In this document: positions 1-62,827 of the stretch, in pieces | How the letters are laid out: each line of letters begins with the position of its first letter | Position numbering within the stretch: the stretch's first letter is position 1 | The notes under the pieces: model-generated | What the model saw: the letters and a program-made list of their open reading frames with translations, nothing else | Told to the model about the DNA's origin: nothing | The model's database searches: none | Translations under genes and position numbers: made by a program | DNA from: Escherichia phage phT4A | Sequence record: NC_055712.1 | Direction: 5' to 3' (one strand) | DNA length: 64,000 nt

Positions 1-203
1 ACAAGTTTGTTGTTTCCTGGGTACATCTTGACTAATAACAGATGCGCAATATAATGTTGACGCGCTGTAAGATTAACCAAATTATCATCAGAATCTGTTC
101 CACCTATGCACTTAGGTATGATATGGTGTGATTCTGTATATCCATCATACTGCGTTTGTTTAGCATGTTCTATGATAGAGTTATAAATTTTGTTATAGTT
201 CAT
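1..203 (-). CDS. HNH homing endonuclease (N-terminal part; 3' end runs off window)
   Basis: Manual reverse translation from ATG at 203: MNYNKIYNSIIEHAKQTQYDGYTESHHIIPKCIGGTDSDDNLVNLTARQHYIAHLLL, the HH..N..H core typical of phage/intron HNH endonucleases. Confidence 0.7.
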   Translation of the reverse strand, partial: MNYNKIYNSIIEHAKQTQYDGYTESHHIIPKCIGGTDSDDNLVNLTARQHYIAHLLLVKMYPGNNKL

Positions 204-259
204 AAACATATCTCTTGTTTGATGGGCCGTTAGATACCCCTATTTAAGAGGATGAAATT

Positions 260-454
260 ATGTTATTAGAAAAATCTTTTGAATTAGAAACCGCTCCGGA
301 AATAGAGCGGTTTTATCTCCACAACAATTTTCTTGAAGAAAAACATATAGTTACTATGAAAGATGTTGAAGAAGCATTCAAAGATAACCCTATAGAGTTG
401 ACGCGAATCAAGAACAACAAAAGTTCTGTTTGGTTCCTCGAAAAAATCTATTGA
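260..454 (+). CDS. hypothetical protein (64 aa)
   Basis: ORF track; AAGAGG Shine-Dalgarno upstream; followed by hairpin terminator. Confidence 0.5.
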   Translation: MLLEKSFELETAPEIERFYLHNNFLEEKHIVTMKDVEEAFKDNPIELTRIKNNKSSVWFLEKIY

Positions 455-479
455 CCGAAATCCATAAATACAGTAAAGT

Positions 480-516
480 AGCCCATGTAACGAAACGTGG
501 GCTTTGTTTTTATTTG
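480..516 (+). terminator. rho-independent terminator
   Basis: AGCCCATG-N8-CGTGGGCT stem followed by TTGTTTTTATTT. Confidence 0.6.
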
Positions 517-527
517 AGGAACAATAA

Positions 528-2237
528 ATGATCACCGAATCCAAAATGACTTATCAGGAAGCACTGAAAGTTTTGGGCGCAACTGGTAGCGAAACCAGCG
601 CTGAAATGTCCAGACTCTTCAAACGTGCATCCTTACGCAATCACCCCGACCGTGGTGGTAGCAATGAATTAATGCAGAAAATCAACCAGGCTTACGATGT
701 CGTTACAAAAACTGGGCCTAGTGGCGCACGTTCTGAGACTGCTGGTGATGTTCGAGCACGTTATGCCCGTCAAAAGAAAGAATGGGAAGAAAAAGTTGAT
801 GCTTACTTTGTAGTGGCGAAAAACTATTTCAGCACCAAATTTAACGCACAGGAATTTGCGGATTACTTCACCAAATACACTGGATTGCCTACCACTTTCA
901 AACAGGAAGTAACAAAAGGTAGTCACGGTGTTTATGCTTCGTTCCGTTTCACTTCTGGTGATGCTTACTTTGATTTCGGTTTCAACTGCACCCCTCCGAA
1001 TGGACAAGGGTTAGCCGCTCCGGATTCATCTGCACTGGGTAGCGTTTCTGTTAGTACCTTTGTACTGGTTGGAACTAAAAAACACAAAATGGCAAGCCGT
1101 GATTATCAATGGGGCAAAAACCCGGATAAGATCACTCCGGAAAGCCTGTTCCCGTCTAAAAAACTGGAAAGCATTTTCAGCCCTGTACAGAAAAATATCA
1201 AATACAAACGTGCTGACTACCTGGCATCATTCCGTAAGCTGTTAGGCGCTGACGTTAGCGGAAACGATATCTTTGTTGAAGTTGGTACACTGAAAGTTCG
1301 TTTCTATCGTCACGTATTCATGCGCAAAGGTGCTTATGTGTTTAGCGCGGTGTATGATCCTGCTGTATCGAAGTATCGTCCGGCTGCACAACTTCGCGGA
1401 ACCATGTTCGAAGACGAGGACGGCGCTTGCCTGGATATGATCGTTGATACGTTCAAAGAGTTGCAGAAACTGAAACCGAGTGTTCAAGGCGTTGTGAACG
1501 CGATCGATAAGATGAACGCAGAGTTTGCGGCGGGGCATCGTTCAGCATCTTTTGTTAAACGTGTAGCTGCTCAGGAAGCCGCACCGAAGCCAGAAGAGAA
1601 GCCAAAACGCACTGTTAATCGTATCGGTAAAGAGGAATATTTCGCAGCACTAAAAGATATTGGTGCTCGTGTAATGCCTACCAGCGGTTATGTTGAATTT
1701 GATAACGGCGCTGGTGTTACTATCAACTTCAAGCGTATTGTTGTAAACCGTAAAGCATACTACTCATTCAGTAGCTTTGATTTCACGTACTCTGGTCAGA
1801 AACACATTGAGTGGTTGAAAGGAATCGATATCGCAGAAGATACCAAAGGCGCAAGCATTAGCCTACTCACTGATACTCTGAAATCTTTACGTGGGATCTC
1901 TGACTGGAACACTGTTAAGAGCGCTTTAGATCAAATGAATTCTAACTTCAAGGCGGGTAAATTCTCCGCACCTCATGTGAAGAAGGAAGCAGAGCAAAAA
2001 GCACCGAAACAGAAAGACGAAATCGGCGCACAGCCTACCAAACCACAGGCGGCTAAGAAAGATACACCAGAAGTGGAAAAATCACAGGCTGTTCATGCAG
2101 CACGTGAGAAAGCGAATATGAACAACACTATTCGTAAAATGATGACTATGTTAGTCAAAGCACAGCGCAAAGACACTCCGGAAGATATCAAGAAGGAAGT
2201 TGATGCAGCAATTCAATTGTGGCGCTTGACTTATTAA
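528..2237 (+). CDS. J-domain (DnaJ-like) protein with internally duplicated C-terminal domain
   Basis: N-terminus YQEALKVLG..FKRASLRNHPDRGG..QKINQAYDVV carries the HPD J-domain signature; two later segments are recognisable repeats (DTFKELQKL..AIDKMNAEFAAG vs DTLKSLRGI..ALDQMNSNFKAG). Confidence 0.85.
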   Translation: MITESKMTYQEALKVLGATGSETSAEMSRLFKRASLRNHPDRGGSNELMQKINQAYDVVTKTGPSGARSETAGDVRARYARQKKEWEEKVDAYFVVAKNYFSTKFNAQEFADYFTKYTGLPTTFKQEVTKGSHGVYASFRFTSGDAYFDFGFNCTPPNGQGLAAPDSSALGSVSVSTFVLVGTKKHKMASRDYQWGKNPDKITPESLFPSKKLESIFSPVQKNIKYKRADYLASFRKLLGADVSGNDIFVEVGTLKVRFYRHVFMRKGAYVFSAVYDPAVSKYRPAAQLRGTMFEDEDGACLDMIVDTFKELQKLKPSVQGVVNAIDKMNAEFAAGHRSASFVKRVAAQEAAPKPEEKPKRTVNRIGKEEYFAALKDIGARVMPTSGYVEFDNGAGVTINFKRIVVNRKAYYSFSSFDFTYSGQKHIEWLKGIDIAEDTKGASISLLTDTLKSLRGISDWNTVKSALDQMNSNFKAGKFSAPHVKKEAEQKAPKQKDEIGAQPTKPQAAKKDTPEVEKSQAVHAAREKANMNNTIRKMMTMLVKAQRKDTPEDIKKEVDAAIQLWRLTY

Positions 2238-2253
2238 TCAAATGAACTATAAT

Positions 2254-2284
2254 GGGAACTGTTAACGCAGTTCCCTTTTTATTT
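2254..2284 (+). terminator. rho-independent terminator
   Basis: GGGAACTG-TTAACG-CAGTTCCC stem then TTTTTATTT. Confidence 0.7.
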
Positions 2285-2296
2285 GAGGAAAATATT

Positions 2297-2587
2297 ATGA
2301 GTTGTCCAACATGGTTACGTTTGGAAAATCTGAAAGAAGGTACACAAAAACGGATTTATATTAATCTTGGTTGGGTTCCTCCTACCGATTTTCAAATGGC
2401 TGAGATTTTAATCAATGCTGTTAAAGAAGTAAGCGACACTTACGAATGGGAAAGGCTCTATTTTCCTTTGATTGGTTTGTATATGACGCGAAATAAATTT
2501 GAAGAAATGAAACTTGCTGTTATTCGCGCTACGATTATTAATTCCCAACAAAGATTTACTTTGAAAAATGCATGGAGTTCTGAATGA
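2297..2587 (+). CDS. hypothetical protein (96 aa)
   Basis: Start moved from track 2252 to ATG 2297 (downstream of terminator, SD GAGGA); stop overlaps next start (ATGA). Confidence 0.6.
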   Translation: MSCPTWLRLENLKEGTQKRIYINLGWVPPTDFQMAEILINAVKEVSDTYEWERLYFPLIGLYMTRNKFEEMKLAVIRATIINSQQRFTLKNAWSSE

Positions 2588-2814
2588 TTATTCAAGTATC
2601 TGTACAGGGTGACACTCTGACTGTCACCGAATCCATCAATACCGCTCTTGCTGTATGTCGTGACCATATCTCACAAAATCCTCCAGTGACTGAGATCCTG
2701 GAAATTGATGTTTGGGATCAGATTGGGATGATCGACGCATCATATGGATTTACCCCGCGAGATGAAGAACTATCTCGTATCGAATCATGGCTGAATGAAC
2801 AGGAAACGGAATGA
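2584..2814 (+). CDS. hypothetical protein (76 aa)
   Basis: ORF track; ATGA start/stop coupling on both sides. Confidence 0.6.
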   Translation: MIIQVSVQGDTLTVTESINTALAVCRDHISQNPPVTEILEIDVWDQIGMIDASYGFTPRDEELSRIESWLNEQETE

Positions 2815-3068
2815 AACTCCCTAAGAACACAACACTACTAACCCGCGAAAAACTTCACTCTGTTGATTGGTGTCCTCTGGATATCATGATTTTTGATATT
2901 GAATCTCGCGTGATCAATGCAAAATATCAGGGGTGTAGTATTTTCTCTGTTGAATTCGAGAAGATTCGCGGGTATGATGAGAAGTACAAAGAAAAACTGA
3001 AAGTTATGATTGAAGCATTGGGCTATATTGTAACTGTTGAAGACAATAAAATGTGGATCGCAATATGA
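2811..3068 (+). CDS. hypothetical protein (85 aa)
   Basis: ORF track; ATGA coupling to neighbours. Confidence 0.6.
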   Translation: MKLPKNTTLLTREKLHSVDWCPLDIMIFDIESRVINAKYQGCSIFSVEFEKIRGYDEKYKEKLKVMIEALGYIVTVEDNKMWIAI

Positions 3069-3643
3069 GCATAGTAAAAGCGGTGTTTGCATTGGGGCAC
3101 GATATCTACCACGATGATTTCGCTTTTGGATATCAGCAAGGCTTGCCGTGGGGCCACTGTAAAGAAGATTTACAGAACTTCAAAGAAGAAACCGCCGATA
3201 GCGTTCTGATTATGGGTGCAAATACGTTTACCTCTCTTCCGGGTAAATTGCCTGGTAGAATTCATTGCGTTCTGTCTGGTTCCGGTAGTTTTTTGAAAAC
3301 CAAAAAAGGCGAGGTTGCTGATTACGTGATCCACGGTGGCGGGTTGTCTGCTGCTATTGGTACAATGCAAGCAACACACCCAGATAAAAATGTGTGTGTC
3401 ATTGGTGGTAAGGGGTTGCTTTTAGATTCAATCAATAATAAAATGGTTGATGAAGTAGTTTTGACACACATTTACGGACATCATGTATATAATGCCCCCG
3501 CATTTAAACGCGATGTTTCGTTTACTGCTTCTGAATTGGGTGATGCATTGTTAAAATATGAATTTTCTGATTTCGAAACTCAGTACATCAAAGAACATGA
3601 ACGCATTGAAAAAATCATAGTCGATCGATATAAAAAGGTATAA
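3065..3643 (+). CDS. frd: dihydrofolate reductase
   Basis: DHFR-like segments LPWGHCKEDLQNFKEET, IMGANTFTSLPGKLPGR, VIGGKGLL; ATGA overlap with upstream ORF sets start at 3065; T4 order frd-td-nrdA. Confidence 0.85.
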   Translation: MSIVKAVFALGHDIYHDDFAFGYQQGLPWGHCKEDLQNFKEETADSVLIMGANTFTSLPGKLPGRIHCVLSGSGSFLKTKKGEVADYVIHGGGLSAAIGTMQATHPDKNVCVIGGKGLLLDSINNKMVDEVVLTHIYGHHVYNAPAFKRDVSFTASELGDALLKYEFSDFETQYIKEHERIEKIIVDRYKKV

Positions 3644-3644
3644 A

Positions 3645-4520
3645 ATGAAACAATATCTGGATATTATTAAACTTGTACTTGATAACGGTGTTGAATCAAC
3701 TGATCGCACTGGTGTAGGTACTATTCGTATTTTCGGCGCACAAGCCCGATGGGATCTAAACAGAGGTTTCCCAGCAACTACCTGTAAAAAACTATTCTTC
3801 AAACCGTGCAAGCATGAATTGCAATGGTTCCTGTCCGGTTCAACCAACGTTGAAGAACTTCGCCGGATGACCTGGGGTGAAAATAGCGATAAGCGCACAA
3901 TCTGGGATGATAACTATGAAAAACAAGCTATTGATTTAGGATATGATTCTGGTTATCTGGGGCCAATCTACGGTCATCAATGGCGTTCGTTTGGTTCTCT
4001 TTATGGGGATGATGATAGTTATTATGGCGGTTGTGGTGTTGATCAGATTGCAAAAGTCATCGAACAACTGAAATCAACTCCAGACGATCGCGGGATCATC
4101 GTTTCTGCCTGGAACCCTGTTGATCTTGATGATATGGCTCTGCGTCCGTGTCACTGTTTCTTCCAGTTCGTTGTAATCAACGGTAAACTGTCTCTACAGT
4201 GGTATCAGCGTTCAGTTGATGTCTTCTTAGGGTTGCCGTTCAATATCGCCTCCTATGCTCTCCTGACGCATATTATCGCTGATATTTGCGGGTACGAAGT
4301 GGGCGATCTGGTTTGGACTGGTGGTGATGTCCATATCTATAAAAATGCGGTTGAACAGGCAAAAGAACTTTTACAGCCTAACCGTTCACCAATGCCATTA
4401 CCGATTCTAAAAATGCCGAAGGTAAATAGCTTACTTGATTTAGATCAAGAATTCTTTGACTCGATAACCTTAGAAGGGTATCATAATCACGGCTCTCTAA
4501 AAGCTGAAATGGCAGTATGA
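3645..4520 (+). CDS. td: thymidylate synthase (ThyA type), uninterrupted
   Basis: ThyA signatures RTGVGT, YGHQWR, IVSAWNP, LRPCHCFFQF, QRSVDVFLGLPFNIASY. Confidence 0.95.
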   Translation: MKQYLDIIKLVLDNGVESTDRTGVGTIRIFGAQARWDLNRGFPATTCKKLFFKPCKHELQWFLSGSTNVEELRRMTWGENSDKRTIWDDNYEKQAIDLGYDSGYLGPIYGHQWRSFGSLYGDDDSYYGGCGVDQIAKVIEQLKSTPDDRGIIVSAWNPVDLDDMALRPCHCFFQFVVINGKLSLQWYQRSVDVFLGLPFNIASYALLTHIIADICGYEVGDLVWTGGDVHIYKNAVEQAKELLQPNRSPMPLPILKMPKVNSLLDLDQEFFDSITLEGYHNHGSLKAEMAV

Positions 4521-4525
4521 AAAAT

Positions 4526-4545
4526 GGGGCTTCGGCCCCTTTCTT
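4526..4545 (+). terminator. hairpin terminator/attenuator between td and nrdA
   Basis: GGGGC-TTCG-GCCCC then TTTCTT. Confidence 0.55.
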
Positions 4546-4559
4546 AACAAGGTAAGAGA

Positions 4560-6054
4560 ATGAATGACATTAAAGTAGTAGTAAAATCCTCTGGTGTACG
4601 CCAGCCGTTTGACAAAGAAAAAATATACAAAGTGCTCAAGTGGGCCTGTGATGGTCATAATATCGATGTTCGTGCATTCCTTGAAAATGTATTAGAACTG
4701 ATCCGCGATGGTATGACTACCAAACAAATTCAACGTATCGCTATCAAGTATGCAGCAGATCATATTTCTGTTAAAGAACCGGATTGGCAATACGTAGCAT
4801 CGAATCTTGAAATGTTTGCATTGCGTAAAGACGTTTACGGTCAGTTCGATCCTATCCCGTTCTACGATCACATCGTTAAAATGGTTGAAGCGGGGAAATA
4901 CGATAAAGAGATCCTGGAAAAATACAGCAAGCAAGATATTCAAGTTTTCGAACGTGCAATTGATCATGATAAGGATTTTGAATTTTCGTATGCTGGTTCC
5001 CAACAGTTAATCGGGAAATATCTGGTTCAGGATCGCGATACTGGCGAAATCTTTGAAACCCCTCAGTATGCGTTTATGCTTATTGCGATGTGTCTGCATC
5101 AGGAAGAAACTGGGTTAGCACAGGTTACGCATATCGTTGATTTTTATAACGCAATTTCCGATCGCAAACTGTCTCTACCGACTCCAATTATGGCGGGTGT
5201 ACGTACTCCTACGCGCCAGTTCTCCAGTTGTGTAGTAATTGAATCGGGTGATTCTCTTGGTTCTCTTAACGCTGTAACCTCTGCGATCGTGAAGTATATT
5301 TCACAACGTGCTGGTATTGGGGTTAACGCGGGACATATTCGCGCAATGGGTTCTAAAATCCGTGGTGGTGAAGCTGTTCATACTGGTGTGATTCCTTTCT
5401 GGAAACATATTCAAACCGCTGTTAAATCCTGTTCACAGGGTGGCGTTCGTGGTGGTGCTGCAACACTGTATTATCCTTTCTGGCATCTGGAAGTTGAAAA
5501 CCTTCTGGTGTTGAAGAACAACAAAGGCGTAGAAGAAAACCGCGTTCGTCATCTTGATTATGGTGTACAGCTTAACCAGTTGATGTATAAACGCTTAATG
5601 AATCGTGATTACATTACGCTGTTTAGTCCGGATGTTGCTAACGATCGTCTGTATGATCTGTTCTATGAAGCTGATCAGACTGCATTTGAAGAACTGTATG
5701 AAAGCCTGGAAAAAGATCCAACTGTTCGTAAGAAACGCATCAAAGCGGTTGACCTGTTCCAACTTTTAGCACAGGAACGCGCACAGACAGGACGCAAATA
5801 CATTTTCAACACTCATCACGTCAACCAACAGGGTAGTTTTACGGTTCCTGTCCGTATGTCTAACCTGTGTTGTGAGATTGCGATCCCAACGTCGCCGCTG
5901 GATGACGATGATAAAATGGCTGGTGAAATCGGATTGTGTACGCTAATGGCTATCGTTCTGGATAACGCTGATATCAGCGAATTCCCGAAACTCACGCGTA
6001 TTGCAGTACGTGCGCTTGTATAACCTGTTGGATTACCGTAACTACCCTGTAAAA
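4560..6054 (+). CDS. nrdA: ribonucleotide reductase large subunit, 5' part only (frameshifted near 6019, then lost in gap)
   Basis: ATP-cone N-terminus, catalytic NLCCEIAIPT; frame stops at 6023 but the next frame reads DNLLDYRNYPVK, the expected NrdA continuation; C-terminal ~250 aa missing. Confidence 0.9.
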
Positions 6055-6154
6055 NNNNNNNNNNNNNNNNNNNNNNNNNNNNNNNNNNNNNNNNNNNNNN
6101 NNNNNNNNNNNNNNNNNNNNNNNNNNNNNNNNNNNNNNNNNNNNNNNNNNNNNN
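6055..6154. other. assembly gap (100 N)
   Basis: Run of exactly 100 n; flanking sequence is not collinear (nrdA interior on left, non-nrdA sequence on right), so true length is unknown. Confidence 0.99.
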
Positions 6155-6284
6155 GCATGTGGTTAATGTTTTGTGTGGTAAGAAAAGATCACTTGACTTT
6201 TTGGATATATAAATGTATGAAAATCTGAATTCAACTTAACCCTTGATAAATGTGGTCGCATCGATCGAAGTTTTTGTTTAAAGT

Positions 6285-6591: not shown

Positions 6592-7729
6592 AATTATCAA
6601 TACCCTTTACAAACAACTCATGCAGTTGTGTGGTGAATCCGAAACATTTTTCTTCGTTGATCAAGTAACCGTGATGGGTACACCTGTTCGAATCTTTAAC
6701 TATCGCATGGCCTCATATACAGACTGGCTAAAGCCTGGTGCTCTGGAATGTCGCGGTATCATGTTTGAAATGGATGGAGATACCCCCGTATCAATCATCA
6801 GCCGCCCTATGGAGAAGTTTTTTAACTATGCCGAGGTAAAGGCATGGGAAGCGCTTAACGAGTCTCCTATTGAATTAGGCGAAGTTTTAGACGTGATGAT
6901 TAAAGAAGATGGTTCCTTGATCTCAACTTTCCTTGACGGTGGATTTCTGGCGGTCAAGTCTAAAGGTTCGGTTAAATCAGAACAAGCTATGGATGCGCAC
7001 AGCGTGTTAATGGCAAATCGTGAATTGCTGACCCGCTTAACTGAGATCGCTAAAGAAAACTATACGGTGAACATGGAATACGTTTCCCCGAAAAACCGTA
7101 TTGTCGTTGGTTATGATTCTCCTGATCTGCGTATCCTGAACGTTCGTCACAACATCACGGGTGAATACATCCCTTATGATGAACTCTTTGCTGACGCGCT
7201 GTTACGTGCGTATCTGGTTAAGCGTGAGAATATCGAAGTACTGGATCTGGATGCATTCGCAAAAGAAGCATATCAGAATGAAGGATTCGAAGGCTATGTT
7301 GTTCTGACAACGAAAGGGTTTGTAAAAATCAAAACAAACTGGTATGTCAATCTGCATCGCACAAAAGATAGCATCACCAACAATAAGGATCTTTTCCTAA
7401 ATATTGTTGAGAATACGGTCGATGACCTGAAACAGCTATTCAGTTCGGATCTGGTCTCTCTGAAAAAGATTGACGATTTCGAAAAACTTTTCCTTGATAG
7501 TCTCAATCGTTTGAGTGCAAAAGCGTTCAAAGCTATTGAAGATAATAAAGGGAAATCGCGTAAAGATTTTGCTATCAGTCTAAGCGCGGATTTGTCAAAC
7601 GACGGTCGGATCATCTTCGGGCCTCTTATGAAGTACTTCGAAGAAACCGATCCACAAAAACTGGTCGATCGCATCATTGAAATGATGGTTAAAAATTACG
7701 ATCAGTTCATTCCTGGAGAGTACAAGTGA
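6572..7729 (+). CDS. rnlA: RNA ligase 1
   Basis: Collinear with T4 Rnl1 as recalled (RIFNYRMASYTDWLKPGALECRGIMFEMDG..SRPMEKFFN); adenylation motif KEDGSL. Confidence 0.9.
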   Translation: MTKAQTKIINTLYKQLMQLCGESETFFFVDQVTVMGTPVRIFNYRMASYTDWLKPGALECRGIMFEMDGDTPVSIISRPMEKFFNYAEVKAWEALNESPIELGEVLDVMIKEDGSLISTFLDGGFLAVKSKGSVKSEQAMDAHSVLMANRELLTRLTEIAKENYTVNMEYVSPKNRIVVGYDSPDLRILNVRHNITGEYIPYDELFADALLRAYLVKRENIEVLDLDAFAKEAYQNEGFEGYVVLTTKGFVKIKTNWYVNLHRTKDSITNNKDLFLNIVENTVDDLKQLFSSDLVSLKKIDDFEKLFLDSLNRLSAKAFKAIEDNKGKSRKDFAISLSADLSNDGRIIFGPLMKYFEETDPQKLVDRIIEMMVKNYDQFIPGEYK

Positions 7730-8262
7730 AATCATTTGGCGCATATAGCCGAACGATAGAACAAGAAAAAGCAGGGATTGATTCCCTGCTTTCTTTCGTT
7801 GATGTTTTCCCCGAAACTGGAAAAATTTACTGGAATGATAAAGCATATCATAAAAGTAAGAGAGGAAAAGAAGCGGGTTCTATTGTTTGTGAAGAATACC
7901 CTTATACGAAAATAAAGTATGCTGGGAAAAATTACATGAGGCATAGAATAATATTTTACTATGTTCATGGTTACTTACCAATCATAGTTGATCATAAAAA
8001 TGGTCTTGATTTTGGTGATTGTATTGATAATCTTCAAGAATCCGATCCCGTTCATAATATATTGAAGAAAAACAAAACCAGAAAATCTAAAACTACCACA
8101 TCAAAAGGGGTTGACTATCGTTCTTCTCGTGGAAAATATAGAGCACAAATACGGATTAATGGTAAAACGAAACATATAGGATATTATGATACAGAAGAAC
8201 AGGCGTCTATCGCATATGAGGAAACTTTGAATGAATATCAAAAGCATCTTGGGTATGATTAA
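7726..8262 (+). CDS. free-standing HNH-AP2 homing endonuclease (paralog 1 of 4; mobile)
   Basis: RHRIIFYYVHGYLPIIVDHKNG..CIDNLQ (HNH) plus KGVDYRSSRGKYRAQIRINGKTKHIGYYDTEEQA (AP2 DNA-binding); GTG start overlaps rnlA stop. Confidence 0.85.
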   Translation: MKSFGAYSRTIEQEKAGIDSLLSFVDVFPETGKIYWNDKAYHKSKRGKEAGSIVCEEYPYTKIKYAGKNYMRHRIIFYYVHGYLPIIVDHKNGLDFGDCIDNLQESDPVHNILKKNKTRKSKTTTSKGVDYRSSRGKYRAQIRINGKTKHIGYYDTEEQASIAYEETLNEYQKHLGYD

Positions 8263-8566
8263 TATAAAATCGTGGATATGGCCTATTATTGTTGCTTGCT
8301 CCCTAATAGCCCTTTTTTACATTGCAGTCGATACCAAAATTGAAAATGCATCATTACGCAAGGATATAAAATCTTTGCAAGACGATGTGAAGAAAGTAAA
8401 AGAGACAAATACAAGCAATACTGTGATCTATGTCGAACAAAAAGGTAAGGATCAGCAGTTGGTCAAGGATGCCGGACGTAAAGATCTGCTGTTTAAAAAA
8501 CCAGGACTGATCGAAATCAAGATCAACAAATCCTTCGAAGAGTATATGGCGGAATACGACAAATGA
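8231..8566 (+). CDS. i-spanin (T4 PseT.3-like); alternative start 8255
   Basis: N-terminal TM WIWPIIVACSLIALFYIAV then coiled-coil; overlaps a lipoprotein gene; sits next to pseT as in T4. Confidence 0.6.
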   Translation: MNIKSILGMINIKSWIWPIIVACSLIALFYIAVDTKIENASLRKDIKSLQDDVKKVKETNTSNTVIYVEQKGKDQQLVKDAGRKDLLFKKPGLIEIKINKSFEEYMAEYDK

Positions 8567-9473: not shown

Positions 9474-9761
9474 ATGAACGTTATTCGTGAAGATAAAGGC
9501 ATCATGGTTGAACTTGGCGATCGCATTCGCGTAGAAAATTTGGGCGATTTTAATCAAAAAGTTCGTTTGTTGTGCCAAAAAATTGCTAACAAAATCCAGG
9601 AACAGAGAAAAGCACCAGGCGGGTTTGAAGTTAGCGCCACTCCGGTTTCTCAGTACTCGTACATTGTGTATATTCATGACGTGGATACTAACAGCACCCA
9701 ATCTTTCGGGCTGGTGTTAAATCCTATTACTGGCTACGTTACATGGGCGGTTGTATTATGA
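9474..9761 (+). CDS. hypothetical protein (95 aa)
   Basis: ORF track; SD AGAGGA upstream. Confidence 0.6.
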   Translation: MNVIREDKGIMVELGDRIRVENLGDFNQKVRLLCQKIANKIQEQRKAPGGFEVSATPVSQYSYIVYIHDVDTNSTQSFGLVLNPITGYVTWAVVL

Positions 9762-10009
9762 ACGTAAAAATTATTGATAGAGCGATGATCACGGACGAAT
9801 CTGTATACCCGGATCCTCGTTATTATGGCGGCGTTTTCGGATACATCAAAGGAACTGATATTGATGTAGTAACAAGTCCGATCGCTGAATATGATATCAA
9901 CAAAAATCAAACAGAAGTTCGCGTTACTACAATCAACGGTTCAGAATATATCGTTGAAGCGACTCCTGATTTTATCAAACAGTTACTAAAGGTGATGAAA
10001 GATGCTTGA
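9758..10009 (+). CDS. hypothetical protein (83 aa)
   Basis: Start moved to ATG 9758 (ATGA overlap with upstream stop). Confidence 0.6.
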   Translation: MNVKIIDRAMITDESVYPDPRYYGGVFGYIKGTDIDVVTSPIAEYDINKNQTEVRVTTINGSEYIVEATPDFIKQLLKVMKDA

Positions 10010-12462: not shown

Positions 12463-13035
12463 GTGTCTATGCGCTTTTTAAAGTATGCAAGTTGGATCGT
12501 ACTCGTCCCTCTTGACATTATTACTGGAGTATTAGCAATTCTGTTTGCCCCGTTTGTTGTACCATTCTACAACGAGAAAACAGGGCATCTTCCTAAAGGC
12601 TTCCGGTGGATGGAAACCTTCGATAACCCTATTGATGGTGATGGTGGACATATCCGCCGTTGGGCGTCCATACGCTATCATCTGGGGGATTTTGGGGTGT
12701 ACATGCAACGTGTTGGCTGGTTGTGGAGAAACAAGGCTTATAACTTCGCATATCACGTTTTAGGACGTGAAGCGACAAGCAAATTCAACTGGAAAGGCAA
12801 CCCAAAAACAGAAGGTGGGCCGAACCCTGTAAATCATGGGTATCTGCTCATGTGGAACGAATCAGCATGGGGTTTGTACGTTTACAAACCGTGGCTACGG
12901 ATCCACAAAGTGCAATTCTGTTTGCGCGTTTATGCTGGATGGAAACTGAAACAAGAAGTTAGCGACCCAGTTAACCTGGATCGTGCAATGCTGGCGTTTC
13001 ATTTCAACCCGTTCAGGTATTATGTAATCAAGTAA
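12463..13035 (+). CDS. membrane protein, unknown function (190 aa)
   Basis: GTG 12463 or ATG 12469; TM segment [23 protein letters not shown]; Trp-rich C-terminal domain. Confidence 0.65.
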
Positions 13036-14737: not shown

Positions 14738-15178
14738 ATGGACATCGGATCAGGTAGTCAGTATCCCTCATGCGCTTTAAGCAACTTTGCCCCGCATCCG
14801 TTTACGTTCGACGGGGTAGAATGCGCATCGATGGAGGGGCTTTTACAAAGCCTGAAATTCAGCAATCCAGACATGCAAGCGCATGTATGTACGCTGGTTG
14901 GTAAAGCCGCCAAGTTCAAAGGCAAGAAAAAGAAATGGTATCGCGATCAGACCTTGTACTGGAAAGGTACACCGATCCATCGCGAATCCGAAGCGTACCA
15001 GATTCTTATTGAAAATGCGTACAATGCTCTTTTCCTGAATGACGGGTTCCGCCGTGCGCTGGCAGCAACCGGAAAAAGTACCTTGACACATTCAATGGGG
15101 AAATCTCGTATGAACGAAACTATTCTGACAGAACGAGAATTTATTAGAAATTTGAACAGGTTGAGAAATTTGTTATGA
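14738..15178 (+). CDS. NADAR (YbiA/DUF1768) domain protein
   Basis: CALSNFAPHPFTFDGVECASMEGLLQSLKF matches the NADAR signature (SNF.P.PF..DG....S.E...Q..KF). Confidence 0.75.
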   Translation: MDIGSGSQYPSCALSNFAPHPFTFDGVECASMEGLLQSLKFSNPDMQAHVCTLVGKAAKFKGKKKKWYRDQTLYWKGTPIHRESEAYQILIENAYNALFLNDGFRRALAATGKSTLTHSMGKSRMNETILTEREFIRNLNRLRNLL

Positions 15179-38043: not shown

Positions 38044-38622
38044 TCAAGCAACCCCCGTAAAGGCGTTTACTATCTGGAAATGATCATCGAAGAATTCCCC
38101 TTGTCGTTGCACGACCTCATGCATAGGTAGCCAGAACGCGTCTGCTGCATCATCAGCACCGCCCATGATACGAGGCAATGAACCATCGTTATTAGGTTCG
38201 AGCTTGATATACTGTGCTACAGTCGGTTTTGAGAAGTACACCGAACGTTTCGGATGATCGAACAGCATCGAATTACGGATAGAACCACGAATAACCTTTT
38301 CAGGTACTTTAATTCGTACTTCTTCCAGTAATTCACGGATCGCACAATCAAGGAACGTTTCGTTACCGTTTTTGTGTCCACCCGGAAGCGCTAACGCATC
38401 TTTACCAGGCGCAAACTTACGACGGATTACTAACACGTGGTTATTACATACGACCACTGAATCAGCCGTGCAACAGTTCAGAGAATCCGGATACGGATAT
38501 TTTTTGAACTTGTCAATCTCTCGTTGCCAGTGCGCATCTTCATGGGACAAACGCTGGAATTCTTTTGTTTGTGTCCATTCATCGATAAAGGAAACCGTAG
38601 TGCTAGGCGCATATTTTAACAA
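38044..38622 (-). CDS. Nudix hydrolase (ADP-ribose pyrophosphatase-like), TTG start or C-terminal half of a NadM-Nudix fusion
   Basis: Nudix box GGHKNGNETFLDCAIRELLEEVRI; no ATG start; frame is -1 relative to the NMNAT gene and overlaps its stop. Confidence 0.8.
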   Translation of the reverse strand: MLKYAPSTTVSFIDEWTQTKEFQRLSHEDAHWQREIDKFKKYPYPDSLNCCTADSVVVCNNHVLVIRRKFAPGKDALALPGGHKNGNETFLDCAIRELLEEVRIKVPEKVIRGSIRNSMLFDHPKRSVYFSKPTVAQYIKLEPNNDGSLPRIMGGADDAADAFWLPMHEVVQRQGEFFDDHFQIVNAFTGVA

Positions 38623-39104
38623 ATCTTCGTCCCAGCTTCATGGTGTTCCCAGATAATTTTGCGTAAATTGGTCGAGGACAGATCCTGGTCTCCAACCTTC
38701 ACAGATTCAACCGGAATATGATTCCATCCGAATGCTTTAAGCCAGTAAGAATCTTTGTCTTTTTCGTACCCGACGATCGCAATTCGGTCATTTCGAGTTT
38801 CATCGATTGCCATACGAACACGGGATTTCCATTTTTCCTCGTTATAGAGATAATCCGGAATGTGAGCGAATTTGATTCTGGCTGCATCTTCAACATCAAG
38901 TTTGCAGATAGACCAGCGAGTGATCATTGCTTGACGCTGTTTAGCGGTCAATGGGTTTAATGTGTTCGGATATGCATAAGCAGAACCGATCAGAATGTAA
39001 ACCGTATCAGCAACAGCAAGGGCTTCCCTTACCATTTTCTCATGACCATAGTGAAAAGGTTGAAAACGTCCAATTACTACAGCTTTATCATATTTGTGTT
39101 TCAT
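38616..39104 (-). CDS. NadM-type nicotinamide-nucleotide adenylyltransferase
   Basis: GRFQPFHYGH and SSTNLRK motifs; ATG 39104 with SD GGAG preferred over track GTG 39116. Confidence 0.85.
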   Translation of the reverse strand: MKHKYDKAVVIGRFQPFHYGHEKMVREALAVADTVYILIGSAYAYPNTLNPLTAKQRQAMITRWSICKLDVEDAARIKFAHIPDYLYNEEKWKSRVRMAIDETRNDRIAIVGYEKDKDSYWLKAFGWNHIPVESVKVGDQDLSSTNLRKIIWEHHEAGTKIC

Positions 39105-39129
39105 AACGTGCTCCACGTTTAAAGGTTAA

Positions 39130-41000: not shown

Positions 41001-41022
41001 CAAAAACGAGGCCAAGCCTCGT
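41001..41022 (-). terminator. rho-independent terminator
   Basis: Minus strand: ACGAGGC-TTG-GCCTCGT then TTTTT. Confidence 0.65.
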
Positions 41023-41047
41023 TATAATATTTTTGCTGTAAAGTCAA

Positions 41048-41456: not shown

Positions 41457-42065
41457 TTATTCTTCCACTGTATCAGGGTTGTTCTTTAGTTGCAAGTAAT
41501 GTTTTCGACAAAGTGAAACATATTTGTCTTCGGCCCCGATCTCAATCTGGTCGCCATTAGCAACAAATTTGCCATTTGCATCAATACGGGCAACGGTAGT
41601 TGCTTTCTTTCCACAATGACAAACCCCCCGCAACTCCCTGATCTCATCAGCAAGTGCCAGCAACATATAAGAACCTTCAAACAGGTTCAACTGAAAATCG
41701 GTTCTTAGTCCATATGTCATTACGGGTATATCTAATTCGTCAACAACCCGACACAGATCCATGACATTTTTCCTGGAAAGGAATTGTGCTTCGTCCACAA
41801 ACACACAAGAAACTAGTTTCTGGCTGTCGCTATAAAAATGATTGTTGTGAACATCATAATATAAGTCCATATCAGGTGTGATCATGGTACATGTTGCTTC
41901 CAACCCAATACGCGAAGAGATACTCTGTTTACCTTCTCGCGTATCAATTGCTGGTTTGTACATCAGGATCCGCATACCGCGTTCCTGGTAGTTGTATGCA
42001 TCGGTGAGTAAACGAGCACTCTTGCCAGCATTCATTGATGCATAATGAAAATATAGTTTAGCCAT
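41457..42065 (-). CDS. tk: thymidine kinase
   Basis: P-loop SMNAGKS, VFVDEAQF, zinc knuckle CHCGKKAT..RKHY. Confidence 0.9.
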   Translation of the reverse strand: MAKLYFHYASMNAGKSARLLTDAYNYQERGMRILMYKPAIDTREGKQSISSRIGLEATCTMITPDMDLYYDVHNNHFYSDSQKLVSCVFVDEAQFLSRKNVMDLCRVVDELDIPVMTYGLRTDFQLNLFEGSYMLLALADEIRELRGVCHCGKKATTVARIDANGKFVANGDQIEIGAEDKYVSLCRKHYLQLKNNPDTVEE

Positions 42066-42288
42066 TTATCCTCTCAACAAAATCTGGGGTATTTTGGAAT
42101 TTCCCTTCCCCTTCATGGTTTTTGCATGTTTTATTTGAACAGTAGATCCACCAATCCCACTCATCATAAGGGGGTTTGGTAATGTTCATTACGCAAATTA
42201 AAGGGAAATGACAATCCCGACAACGAACTTTTTCTATAATGTGTGCGTTAGCCAATTGAAAACCATCCTTTACCCATGAGTTTTTCAT
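42058..42288 (-). CDS. hypothetical Cys-rich protein (76 aa from ATG 42288)
   Basis: CRDCHFPLIC..YCSNKTCKNH; track start 42339 overlaps the upstream ORF by 92 nt. Confidence 0.5.
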   Translation of the reverse strand: MKNSWVKDGFQLANAHIIEKVRCRDCHFPLICVMNITKPPYDEWDWWIYCSNKTCKNHEGEGKFQNTPDFVERING

Positions 42289-42463
42289 TATGTCGCGCAA
42301 GATACTCTTTGATTTCTGGCATCCGGATCGCAGTGTCATACTCTTCTTTCGTCATGGTATGATTTGCGCAACCCATACACCCGCACACCTGCGCGTTACA
42401 CCAACGGAGTGTTCCATATGTCGCAATCACCTTCATTGCTTTAGCTTTGATTTTGTCAGTCAT
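42248..42463 (-). CDS. hypothetical Cys-rich protein (71 aa)
   Basis: WCNAQVCGCMGCANH; start moved to ATG 42463. Confidence 0.5.
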   Translation of the reverse strand: MTDKIKAKAMKVIATYGTLRWCNAQVCGCMGCANHTMTKEEYDTAIRMPEIKEYLARHNEKLMGKGWFSIG

Positions 42464-42745: not shown

Positions 42746-43219
42746 TTAATTCGCCTTACGAGGATCGAAATGAACGACAATGATCGGGTAATCACCAGTC
42801 ACCTCATTAATAATGCGCTTAATGAGTTCCCAGTCGCCCCCAGCGAGGCCAGCACCGATTAAAGGTGTGATGATAGGCTTTCCAGTCTTAACGGCGTCAG
42901 CAAGCCCTACAGCCTGTTTAAAAGCATTGCCGATTGCGTCATAATCGACACGCGGCCCAGGTGTCCAGAAATCATATTGAGTATATGCATTGAAAACAAT
43001 GTTGCCTTTTTCGCCAATGTAAACAGAACAAGTTCCGAGCTTATCACGGGAACCTTTTAACGTATTGGCATCAACTTGAAATGCACCAGGAATACGATCG
43101 CGGATTTCGCGAGCAATACCAGCGCCCATATTGCAATAGCAGTTGCATCCGTGGATCAAATGGCCTTCACCGTTCAGATACATATTGACAGCATTACCTT
43201 TCACTTCTTTAATGATCAT
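42746..43219 (-). CDS. macro-domain protein (ADP-ribose binding/hydrolase)
   Basis: HGCNCYCNMGAGIAREI and ITPLIGAGLAGGDW loops typical of macro domains; start moved to ATG 43219. Confidence 0.8.
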   Translation of the reverse strand: MIIKEVKGNAVNMYLNGEGHLIHGCNCYCNMGAGIAREIRDRIPGAFQVDANTLKGSRDKLGTCSVYIGEKGNIVFNAYTQYDFWTPGPRVDYDAIGNAFKQAVGLADAVKTGKPIITPLIGAGLAGGDWELIKRIINEVTGDYPIIVVHFDPRKAN

Positions 43220-43307
43220 TTTTATTTTTCCGATATAGTAGGGCCACAACAAGGCCCATCAAAATCACAAGGATCCACAATACAGTGAATTGAACCCCTA
43301 CGCTCAT
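43209..43307 (-). CDS. single-TM micro-protein (32 aa)
   Basis: Manual: MSVGVQFTVLWILVILMGLVVALLYRKNKNDH; ATGA overlap upstream. Confidence 0.35.
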   Translation of the reverse strand: MSVGVQFTVLWILVILMGLVVALLYRKNKNDH

Positions 43308-44592: not shown

Positions 44593-44620
44593 AATGTATT
44601 CCTCTCAATTAGATGCATCC

Positions 44621-44658
44621 ATAATAAAAAAGCCCCCGACCGAAGTCAAGGGCTTTTT
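44621..44658 (-). promoter_or_regulatory. hairpin-embedded early promoter cassette (PeSL-like)
   Basis: Minus strand: AAAAAGCCC-TTGACT-17 nt-TATTAT; near-duplicate of the 28263 cassette. Confidence 0.6.
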
Positions 44659-44659
44659 G

Positions 44660-62203: not shown

Positions 62204-62827
62204 TCACTGATTTTTGAAGTATTCGATCTGACGCAAACGCTTTTCAGCGGCGGCTTTCGAATCGTATTCACCAAGTTCTTTTGTGTGATCGTGATTCAAA
62301 ACAACCCACTTATCGCCACGCTGTTCAATGTGTTCTGTAATATCTTTTAACGACTTATCCAGATCCAGTGATTCAGCCTCTTCACAGATAATAGTCAAAT
62401 CCACGGGCAGTGTCAACAACCTTTTTACTCCGCTGATATCATCAAGCATCGAATCGTATGCAAGGGTTACGTGCGGTTTGTAATCCGGATAATCGTATGT
62501 TGCGCCAGCATCAATAGAATCTTTGAAACGGCTATGCAGGTATTCAGATTCCAGGATCCCTACGATAGTGCTACCGTATTTTGTGTCCCACTTTTCAACA
62601 TCAACCAGTTTAGCAGGTTCTGTGATGTCCTGTTGCGGGAACAAATCAACCGTTTTCCGGCTGTATACGATCGTTGTATGCATCTTTTCGGCTGAAACAG
62701 CATTCTTTGTGATACCTAATGTCTTTTGAACATTTTTCAAAGCCTCACATGAAGCCTGATCGAATTTAGCACACATGTAGATACCAGGATCTACAACAGG
62801 TTTTGTGATTTCAAGAAATGATTTCAT
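62204..62827 (-). CDS. 2H phosphoesterase (LigT/cyclic phosphodiesterase fold) with a short C-terminal extension
   Basis: Two H-x-T motifs, MHTTIVYS and PHVTLAYD, about 72 aa apart; start moved to ATG 62827. Confidence 0.75.
   Translation of the reverse strand: MKSFLEITKPVVDPGIYMCAKFDQASCEALKNVQKTLGITKNAVSAEKMHTTIVYSRKTVDLFPQQDITEPAKLVDVEKWDTKYGSTIVGILESEYLHSRFKDSIDAGATYDYPDYKPHVTLAYDSMLDDISGVKRLLTLPVDLTIICEEAESLDLDKSLKDITEHIEQRGDKWVVLNHDHTKELGEYDSKAAAEKRLRQIEYFKNQ

Follow-up and report, generated by a model that had tools for sequence, protein, structure and literature searches.

A 64,000-nt stretch of the genome of Escherichia phage phT4A (NC_055712.1; referred to as the window) carries on its minus strand, at 42746..43219, a gene for a 157-amino acid (aa) stand-alone macrodomain of the Tk.4/AdfM type. 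By its position and its single copy the gene is the Slopekvirus counterpart of tk.4 (adfM) of phage T4. Its product, called here the macro protein, probably has the anti-DarT2 DNA-repair role of an AdfM-type protein, as judged by analogy with T4 Tk.4 and with the bacterial macrodomain SCO6735. The gene is already catalogued and a counter-defence role of the family has been published; it is not a discovery. Identical or nearly identical proteins are encoded by >100 public Klebsiella phage genomes, under the labels Tk.4-like, macro domain or phosphatase.

The open reading frame (ORF) starts at the ATG at 43219 and ends with the TAA at 42748..42746 (stop codon included in the coordinates), exactly as given in an original prediction made from the sequence alone. 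The translated product is 100% identical to a protein of Klebsiella phage Prick1_ER44. A weak GGA element resembling a Shine–Dalgarno sequence lies upstream of the ATG. An alternative TTG start at 43252 is unlikely because the same 474-nt gene is annotated in relatives.

Fold and pocket of the macro protein

Positions 42746..43219 encode a macrodomain, as had been predicted. The Pfam Macro profile (PF01661) is matched at 30.1 bits, above its gathering cut-off of 22 (E = 5.2e-7), over profile positions 1–117 of 118, and phrog_335 is matched with E = 7.4e-57. In total 3,620 database homologs are found at E <= 1e-5. The AlphaFold2 model has a mean predicted local distance difference test score (pLDDT) of 95.8 and a predicted template modelling score (pTM) of 0.91. 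The three-layer alpha/beta/alpha macro fold and its two glycine-rich ADP-ribose loops are present, based upon the model, the Foldseek comparison and the family alignment. The original prediction was to be withdrawn if profile searches gave no support or if the catalytic loop residues were absent; the profiles are matched, and the loops are conserved as described below.

Foldseek returned 170 matches in the PDB at E <= 1e-3, the leading ones being macrodomains or scaffolds derived from macrodomains. Ranks 1–17 are occupied by TARG1, Poa1p, BT1257, Thermus aquaticus DarG and SCO6735 (E = 1.5e-9 to 1.3e-7, template modelling (TM) scores 0.69–0.82), with the MacroD-type domains of alphaviruses and coronaviruses ranked lower. 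The PDB matches found by phmmer comprise the same ALC1-like set. The macro protein thus belongs to the ALC1-like class (TARG1, DarG, SCO6735, BT1257 and Poa1p), rather than to the MacroD, PARG or macroH2A types. This provides the clade that the original prediction had left to be assigned, and it is neither MacroD- nor Af1521-like.

In an alignment of 55 family sequences the invariant residues are H23, G24, C25, N26, M31, G34, A36, N77, Y79, Q81, P119, G122, G124, G128 and W130. The first seven lie in the first ADP-ribose-binding loop, residues 23–39 (HGCNCYCNMGAGIAREI; 43103..43153, minus strand). The last five lie in the glycine-rich diphosphate-binding loop, residues 117–130 (ITPLIGAGLAGGDW; 42830..42871, minus strand), which aligns with PRIGCGLAGG(K/T)W of BT1257/SCO6735 and with PRIGCGLDRLQW of TARG1. 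Both loops quoted in the original prediction are therefore present, and their pocket residues are invariant in the family. Within the first loop H23 and N26 are opposite H24 and N27 of SCO6735. G24 is opposite Val25, the backbone of which has been proposed to hold the catalytic water (PMC9411070). Mutation of a conserved active-site Asn, which may be the counterpart of N26 of the macro protein, lowers the activity of the AdfM of phage PhiKZ (PMC13309987).

Gln81 (42977..42979, minus strand) occupies the position of the catalytic Lys of other members of the class. In the phmmer alignment to PDB 5E3B it is opposite Q105 of the chain, which is Q85 of native SCO6735; the offset of a 20-residue tag was confirmed from K54 and K109 of the chain, which are K34 and K89 in the published numbering (PMC9411070). 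In the BLASTP alignment to TARG1, whose query sequence was confirmed against the PDB (334.8 bits), Gln81 is opposite Lys84, and Ala126 in the second loop is opposite Asp125. Gln85 of SCO6735 is essential, and is the structural equivalent of Lys84 of TARG1 and Lys80 of DarG (PMC9411070). A PDB search with residues 60–157 only lost the DarG matches, so the equivalence of Gln81 with DarG Lys80 is based upon the SCO6735 and TARG1 alignments together with the published superposition. The equivalent of Gln81 is also found in T4 Tk.4 and in the ADP-ribose-1''-phosphate phosphatase (Adpp) of Vibrio phage Gary. By these alignments the macro protein is an ALC1-like macrodomain of the Gln type, as are SCO6735 and BT1257.

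Correspondence to T4 tk.4 and the proposed role

The 4 kb around the macro gene are 98–99% identical to those of the Klebsiella phages BL02, Miro, Matisse and KP27 (Slopekvirus, Straboviridae). The gene order rI.-1, rI, tk, tk.x, macro, vs, vs.1 is common to the window, T4, CC31, Aeromonas phage 31 and KP27. The gene at the macro position is tk.4 in T4, CC31 and Aeromonas phage 31, and is described as 'similar to Tk.4' in the KP27 record. The macro protein and T4 Tk.4 can be aligned over their whole length (32% identity, E = 1e-27, 153 of 157 residues), while the tk.4 product of CC31 is 43% identical to the macro protein and 52% identical to T4 Tk.4. Searches by tblastn starting from either the macro protein or T4 Tk.4 lead to nearly the same ~2,700 phage records, at one place per genome, and a local search of a complete near-identical 177-kb genome revealed no second macro gene.

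The function of the T4 gene has been approached genetically. It was the single significant hit on a DarTG2 host by HIDEN-SEQ, a transposon-sequencing method, and a clean knockout of tk.4 sensitises T4 to DarTG2; the gene was renamed adfM, for anti-DarT factor Macrodomain, and de-ADP-ribosylation of DNA was proposed but not assayed in that study (bioRxiv 10.1101/2025.11.20.689424). The result fits an earlier prediction that T4 carries an anti-DarTG2 factor in addition to AdfA and AdfN (PMC11825919). SCO6735 cleaves thymidine-linked ADP-ribose from DNA, with a proposed water-mediated mechanism (PMC9411070). The macro protein is thus bracketed by an ingroup protein that is needed against DarT2 (T4 Tk.4) and an outgroup protein that reverses DarT2-type damage (SCO6735), which supports an anti-DarT2 role. 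The presence in the same phage of an ortholog of the anti-DarTG1 factor AdfN, as in T4, is also counted in favour of this role.

In the mechanism envisaged, the host toxin DarT2 of the DarTG2 system would ADP-ribosylate thymidines in single-stranded phage DNA, and the macro protein, expressed early, would strip the ADP-ribose from them and allow replication to continue. Gln81 would position the distal ribose, and a water molecule near the backbone of G24 would start the reaction as proposed for SCO6735, with no need of the Lys that serves as nucleophile in DarG and TARG1. Since there is no DarT-binding domain, the enzyme would act on the DNA damage and not on the toxin. By analogy we infer both the substrate, shared with T4 Tk.4 and SCO6735, and the SCO6735-like mechanism.

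Several points weigh against this assignment. The support from T4 tk.4 is genetic only and comes from a preprint (bioRxiv 10.1101/2025.11.20.689424), and the role would be carried over to the macro protein from T4 genetics and SCO6735 biochemistry. The lysines K34 and K89 by which SCO6735 positions DNA align with Ala33 and Trp85. In neighbour-joining trees (150 bootstraps, with bipartitions counted directly) the Tk.4-like and bacterial proteins are split from Adpp and others in 59% of the replicates. The macro protein groups with the Aeromonas-phage tk.4 products and bacterial stand-alone macrodomains (75%), outside the sub-clade of T4; T4, CC31 and a Vequintavirus form a separate group (92%). 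Lastly, the identity of the macro protein to Gary Adpp (36–39%) is no lower than that to T4 Tk.4 (32–34%).

The bacterial stand-alone macrodomains in the sub-clade of the macro protein are 44–50% identical to it. No DarT gene is located beside the two closest bacterial homologs examined, both of which are stand-alone genes. The homolog in Planctomycetes bacterium TBK1r, 44% identical in the family alignment, has two RlaP nucleotidyltransferases, a PARG of the microbial type, ARPP-1/ARPP-2 and a HIT–helicase fusion as neighbours, and no DarT; the locus (CP036432.1 5735053..5745511) looks like an ADP-ribose conflict island. In Shigella phage ESh22 (Mooglevirus; local coordinates 2495..3289) the macrodomain is at the N-terminus of a longer protein (264 aa), and is followed by ~100 C-terminal aa that are uncharacterised.

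The closeness to Gary Adpp raises a different activity, in which the protein would act mainly as an Adpp/Poa1p-like phosphatase, returning the product of RES-type NAD+ phosphorolysis (the aRES defence), ADP-ribose-1''-phosphate (ADPR-1P), to ADP-ribose (ADPR). Purified Gary Adpp (gp182) converts ADPR-1P into ADPR and is required by the NARP1-AP operon against aRES, allowing the NARP1 pathway to rebuild NAD+ after the attack (bioRxiv 10.64898/2026.01.28.702374). It is 38.7% identical to the macro protein over 137 aa, and the two share membership of phrog_335 and the Gln. Poa1p ranks high in both the sequence and the fold searches, and its catalytic His23 aligns with His23 of the macro protein. 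This reading is the origin of the database label 'phosphatase'. The published role of Adpp, however, needs NARP1 as the consumer of the ADPR produced. In Gary (region at local coordinates 3132..6162) and Pseudomonas phage GEC_MRC (region at local coordinates 1..2980) the macro gene lies inside or beside Adps–Namat, whereas Adps was not found in the complete 177-kb Slopekvirus genome (best tblastn E ~7), and hence there is no NARP1. That genome has NAMPT and NMNAT-Nudix instead, resembling NARP2, an alternative strategy against non-canonical NAD+ depletion in which no phosphatase is used (bioRxiv 10.64898/2026.01.28.702374). There is also a difference in three motifs, which are HQxNC, YGQ and IGCGL in Gary and GEC_MRC (the only two Adpp sequences compared) but HGCNC, YTQ and IGAG in the window, T4, CC31 and the bacterial relatives. 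These states may be a signature of substrate specificity. Gln81 was rejected as a discriminator between AdfM and Adpp, as it is present in Gary Adpp too. The tk.4 position, the lack of Adps, the motif states and the phylogenetic bracketing favour AdfM over Adpp, and a phosphatase as the main role of the macro protein is unlikely. The DNA-repair and phosphatase activities need not be exclusive. It is conceivable, if doubtful, that the sub-clade of the macro protein is a dual-purpose eraser of both DarT2-modified DNA and ADPR-1P, or that it acts upon a substrate not yet described. A dual eraser would allow a single small enzyme to counter two unrelated defences that act through NAD+, and Adpp would have specialised from this generalist, as marked by the motif signatures. 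The counter-defence function put forward in the original prediction agrees with the genetics of T4 tk.4/adfM, but its opposition to a metabolic one is not clean, Adpp being both metabolic and counter-defensive.

Removal of ADP-ribose from protein or RNA, placed there by phage transferases such as T4 Alt, ModA and ModB or by host RNA-targeting toxins, is very unlikely. The ALC1-like TARG1 and SCO6735 do act on protein substrates as well (PMC9411070), and it has been speculated in the DarTG1 study that some phage anti-DarT factors might detoxify RNA ADP-ribosylation too (PMC11825919). Yet tblastn with T4 ModA, ModB and residues 1–501 of Alt (the last 181 residues not being in the query) gave no significant match to the genome of the Slopekvirus (best E = 0.09), and the Lys84/Asp125 dyad that TARG1 uses on Glu/Asp-linked protein ADP-ribose is replaced by Gln81/Ala126. 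The T4 transferases modify arginine, and arginine-linked ADP-ribose is not known to be a substrate of macrodomains; both points were counted against this activity. The CmdTAC paper, describing defence against T-even phages that carry tk.4, makes no mention of tk.4 or phage macrodomains. Inhibition of DarT in vitro does not require catalysis by SCO6735, DarG or TARG1, dead mutants of which remain inhibitory (PMC9411070), and AdfB of ICP1 works through direct interaction (PMC11481870). It seems most improbable, nevertheless, that the macro protein works with no action on DNA, either by binding the DarT2 toxin or through the binding or breakdown of Thoeris-type immune signals derived from ADP-ribose. 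There are weak matches to ThsA macrodomains (Pfam PF20016, 19.6 bits; PADLOC ThsA, 11.4 bits), but both are sub-threshold (Pfam cut-off 25) and such matches are expected of any macro fold. The C-terminal DarT-binding domain of DarG is absent, and the invariant pocket, including Q81 and N26, argues for catalysis over mere binding.

The possibility of a captured DarG was rejected on four tests of membership. The scores are 22.8 bits with the NCBIfam equivalog model NF048014 (cut-off 250) and 28.5 bits with PADLOC PDLC02990. The C-terminal domain of DarG is not matched, the 157 aa covering positions 16–148 of 329 in the PADLOC model. The catalytic Lys80 is replaced by Gln81, by the SCO6735 and TARG1 alignments, and there is no DarT toxin gene next to the macro gene, the neighbours of which are phage genes. 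Of the DarG-like character offered in the original prediction the substrate alone is retained, as probable; the protein itself is closer to SCO6735 and BT1257.

Genomic setting and associated genes

Upstream of the macro gene is a 32-aa hydrophobic mini-ORF (MSVGVQFTVLWILVILMGLVVALLYRKNKNDH; 43209..43307, minus strand), read from the sequence, the end of which, stop codon included, extends 11 nt into the macro gene. Its equivalent in Prick1_ER44 is annotated as a 99-nt coding sequence (local coordinates 8211..8309), and the overlap suggests translational coupling. At the other end the ATG of the next gene (42743) follows 2 nt after the macro stop codon. This overlap and this 2-nt gap make the macro gene one member of a closely packed string of genes on the minus strand.

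The string is ~3.6 kb in length, and includes vs, the macro gene and tk. At its head is a sigma-70-like promoter candidate found by a consensus scan (TTGACT-17-TATTAT, 10 of 12 matches; 44621..44649, minus strand). Its downstream end has a terminator-like hairpin (41005..41023, minus strand) of 8 pairs, 5 of them G–C, a palindromic element that the scan called on the plus strand. The KP27 record marks a promoter at the equivalent of the former (local coordinates 4123..4151) and a minus-strand terminator at that of the latter (local coordinates 508..524), so that both elements bracketing the string were independently marked by the KP27 annotators. The region has 17 promoter-like sites compared with 14.4 +/- 3.7 in shuffled controls, and is thus not above control; the scan is weak as proof of early expression. 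For that reason the early timing is one that we only infer.

Some further features of the locus were observed. A 93-aa gene at 42058..42339 (minus strand), between tk and the operon partner of the macro gene, matches Pfam Phage_zn_bind (PF23895, 104 bits). In the window and in KP27 the promoter-like site lies in a 67-bp gap (44593..44659), at which point BL02, Miro, Matisse and Prick1_ER44 have an extra gene of ~400 bp (131 aa; local coordinates 9605..10000 in Prick1_ER44). A 189-aa database protein (P0002), with 97% identity to the macro protein across 84% of its length, has a precomputed Pfam assignment of thymidine kinase (PF00265); the gene call could be chimeric, or the tk–macro junction could be rearranged in some isolate.

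The original prediction also listed a NADAR protein, two Nudix hydrolases and an NMNAT in the window. All are real, but the NMNAT and one Nudix are halves of a single frameshifted gene. The NADAR gene (14738..15178, plus strand; Pfam Phage_30_3, 185 bits) is the ortholog of T4 gp30.3, i.e. AdfN, the anti-DarTG1 factor, with 42.6% identity. One Nudix gene is located at 59691..60098. The NMNAT-like (CTP_transf_like) ORF at 38616..39116 and the second Nudix ORF at 38044..38622, both on the minus strand, together (38044..39116) correspond to one intact 352-aa NMNAT-Nudix gene in the near-identical Prick1_ER44, split in the window by a 1-nt deletion (GAAGGCTGG to GAA-GCTGG). The split is either a sequencing error or a true frameshift; in the latter case the isolate may have a disabled NARP2-like NAD+ pathway. 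In the original prediction these NAD/ADP-ribose genes were considered an unusually complete set. They are rather the normal equipment of a T4-like phage: T4 itself carries AdfN (30.3) and Tk.4, and the combination of NAMPT and NMNAT-Nudix resembles the published NARP2.

A homolog of Acb1, the anti-CBASS phosphodiesterase (207 aa; 62204..62827, minus strand), matches the Pfam Acb1 profile at 160.9 bits. In a relative its sole annotation is 'RNA ligase'. It adjoins the dNMP kinase gene in the region of T4 57B. The 64-kb window thus contains orthologs of three described counter-defence genes (AdfN, the Tk.4/AdfM type and Acb1) and half of a NARP2-like pathway. Slopekviruses are candidates for the therapy of Klebsiella infection with phages, and their content of counter-defence genes is relevant to the prediction of host range.

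Comparison with known systems

Human TARG1 (OARD1) and yeast Poa1p are the top Foldseek matches (E = 1.5e-9 and 3.8e-9, TM 0.72–0.81), with sequence identities to the macro protein of about 20–23%. Ser30 and Phe152 of Poa1p are Asn30 and Ala126 in the macro protein. The best PDB matches by sequence are SCO6735 of Streptomyces coelicolor (5E3B) and BT1257 of Bacteroides (2FG1/2AFC), with E = 5e-6 and 9e-5 respectively. Like the macro protein, both stand alone, have Gln instead of the catalytic Lys, contain a G(L/I)AGG loop and lack the Asp of the TARG1 dyad. They differ in being cellular rather than phage proteins, with 27–28% identity.

DarG of T. aquaticus is of the same macro fold class (Foldseek E = 6e-9), and probably shares with the macro protein the target, DarT2-modified thymidine in single-stranded DNA. 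However, DarG is larger (about 330–340 aa), contains a DarT-binding domain and has Lys as its catalytic residue. Gary gp182 (Adpp) resembles the macro protein in its phrog_335 membership, 36–39% identity, length, Gln and fold class; the differences are its Adps–Adpp–Namat operon and its HQxNC, YGQ and IGCGL motifs. The three-position difference between the NARP1-linked and Tk.4-type proteins provides a cheap hypothesis on how substrate specificity diverged.

T4 Tk.4 is the closest counterpart in its setting. It has 155 aa compared with 157, is stand-alone and single-copy, lies between tk and vs and aligns over its full length, and it shares the HGCNC, YTQ and IGAG states, the Gln at the catalytic position and the same PDB neighbours. 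Each protein matches only the macro half of the PADLOC DarG model (T4 Tk.4 with 36 bits, the macro protein with 28.5 bits). The two differ in sequence (32–34% identity) and sub-clade, and the host of the phage carrying the macro gene is put as Klebsiella.

The name AdfM has also been given to PhiKZ gp104, which in vitro frees DarT2-modified DNA of its ADP-ribose (PMC13309987). This protein (local coordinates 12518..13006) scores 132.9 bits with PADLOC DarG, keeps the Lys (FPTKDNW), and is 21–23% identical to the macro protein; its identity to the T4 tk.4 product (local coordinates 6923..7390) is about 19% in the family alignment. The annotation of the family is unreliable, as T4 AdfM, Gary Adpp and the PhiKZ 'AdfM' all fall under phrog_335 and its label 'phosphatase', although experiments have set at least these three apart. 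The name AdfM itself, from two papers of 2025–2026, covers two separate lineages, the Lys-type, DarG-like protein of PhiKZ and the Gln-type, SCO6735-like protein of T4.

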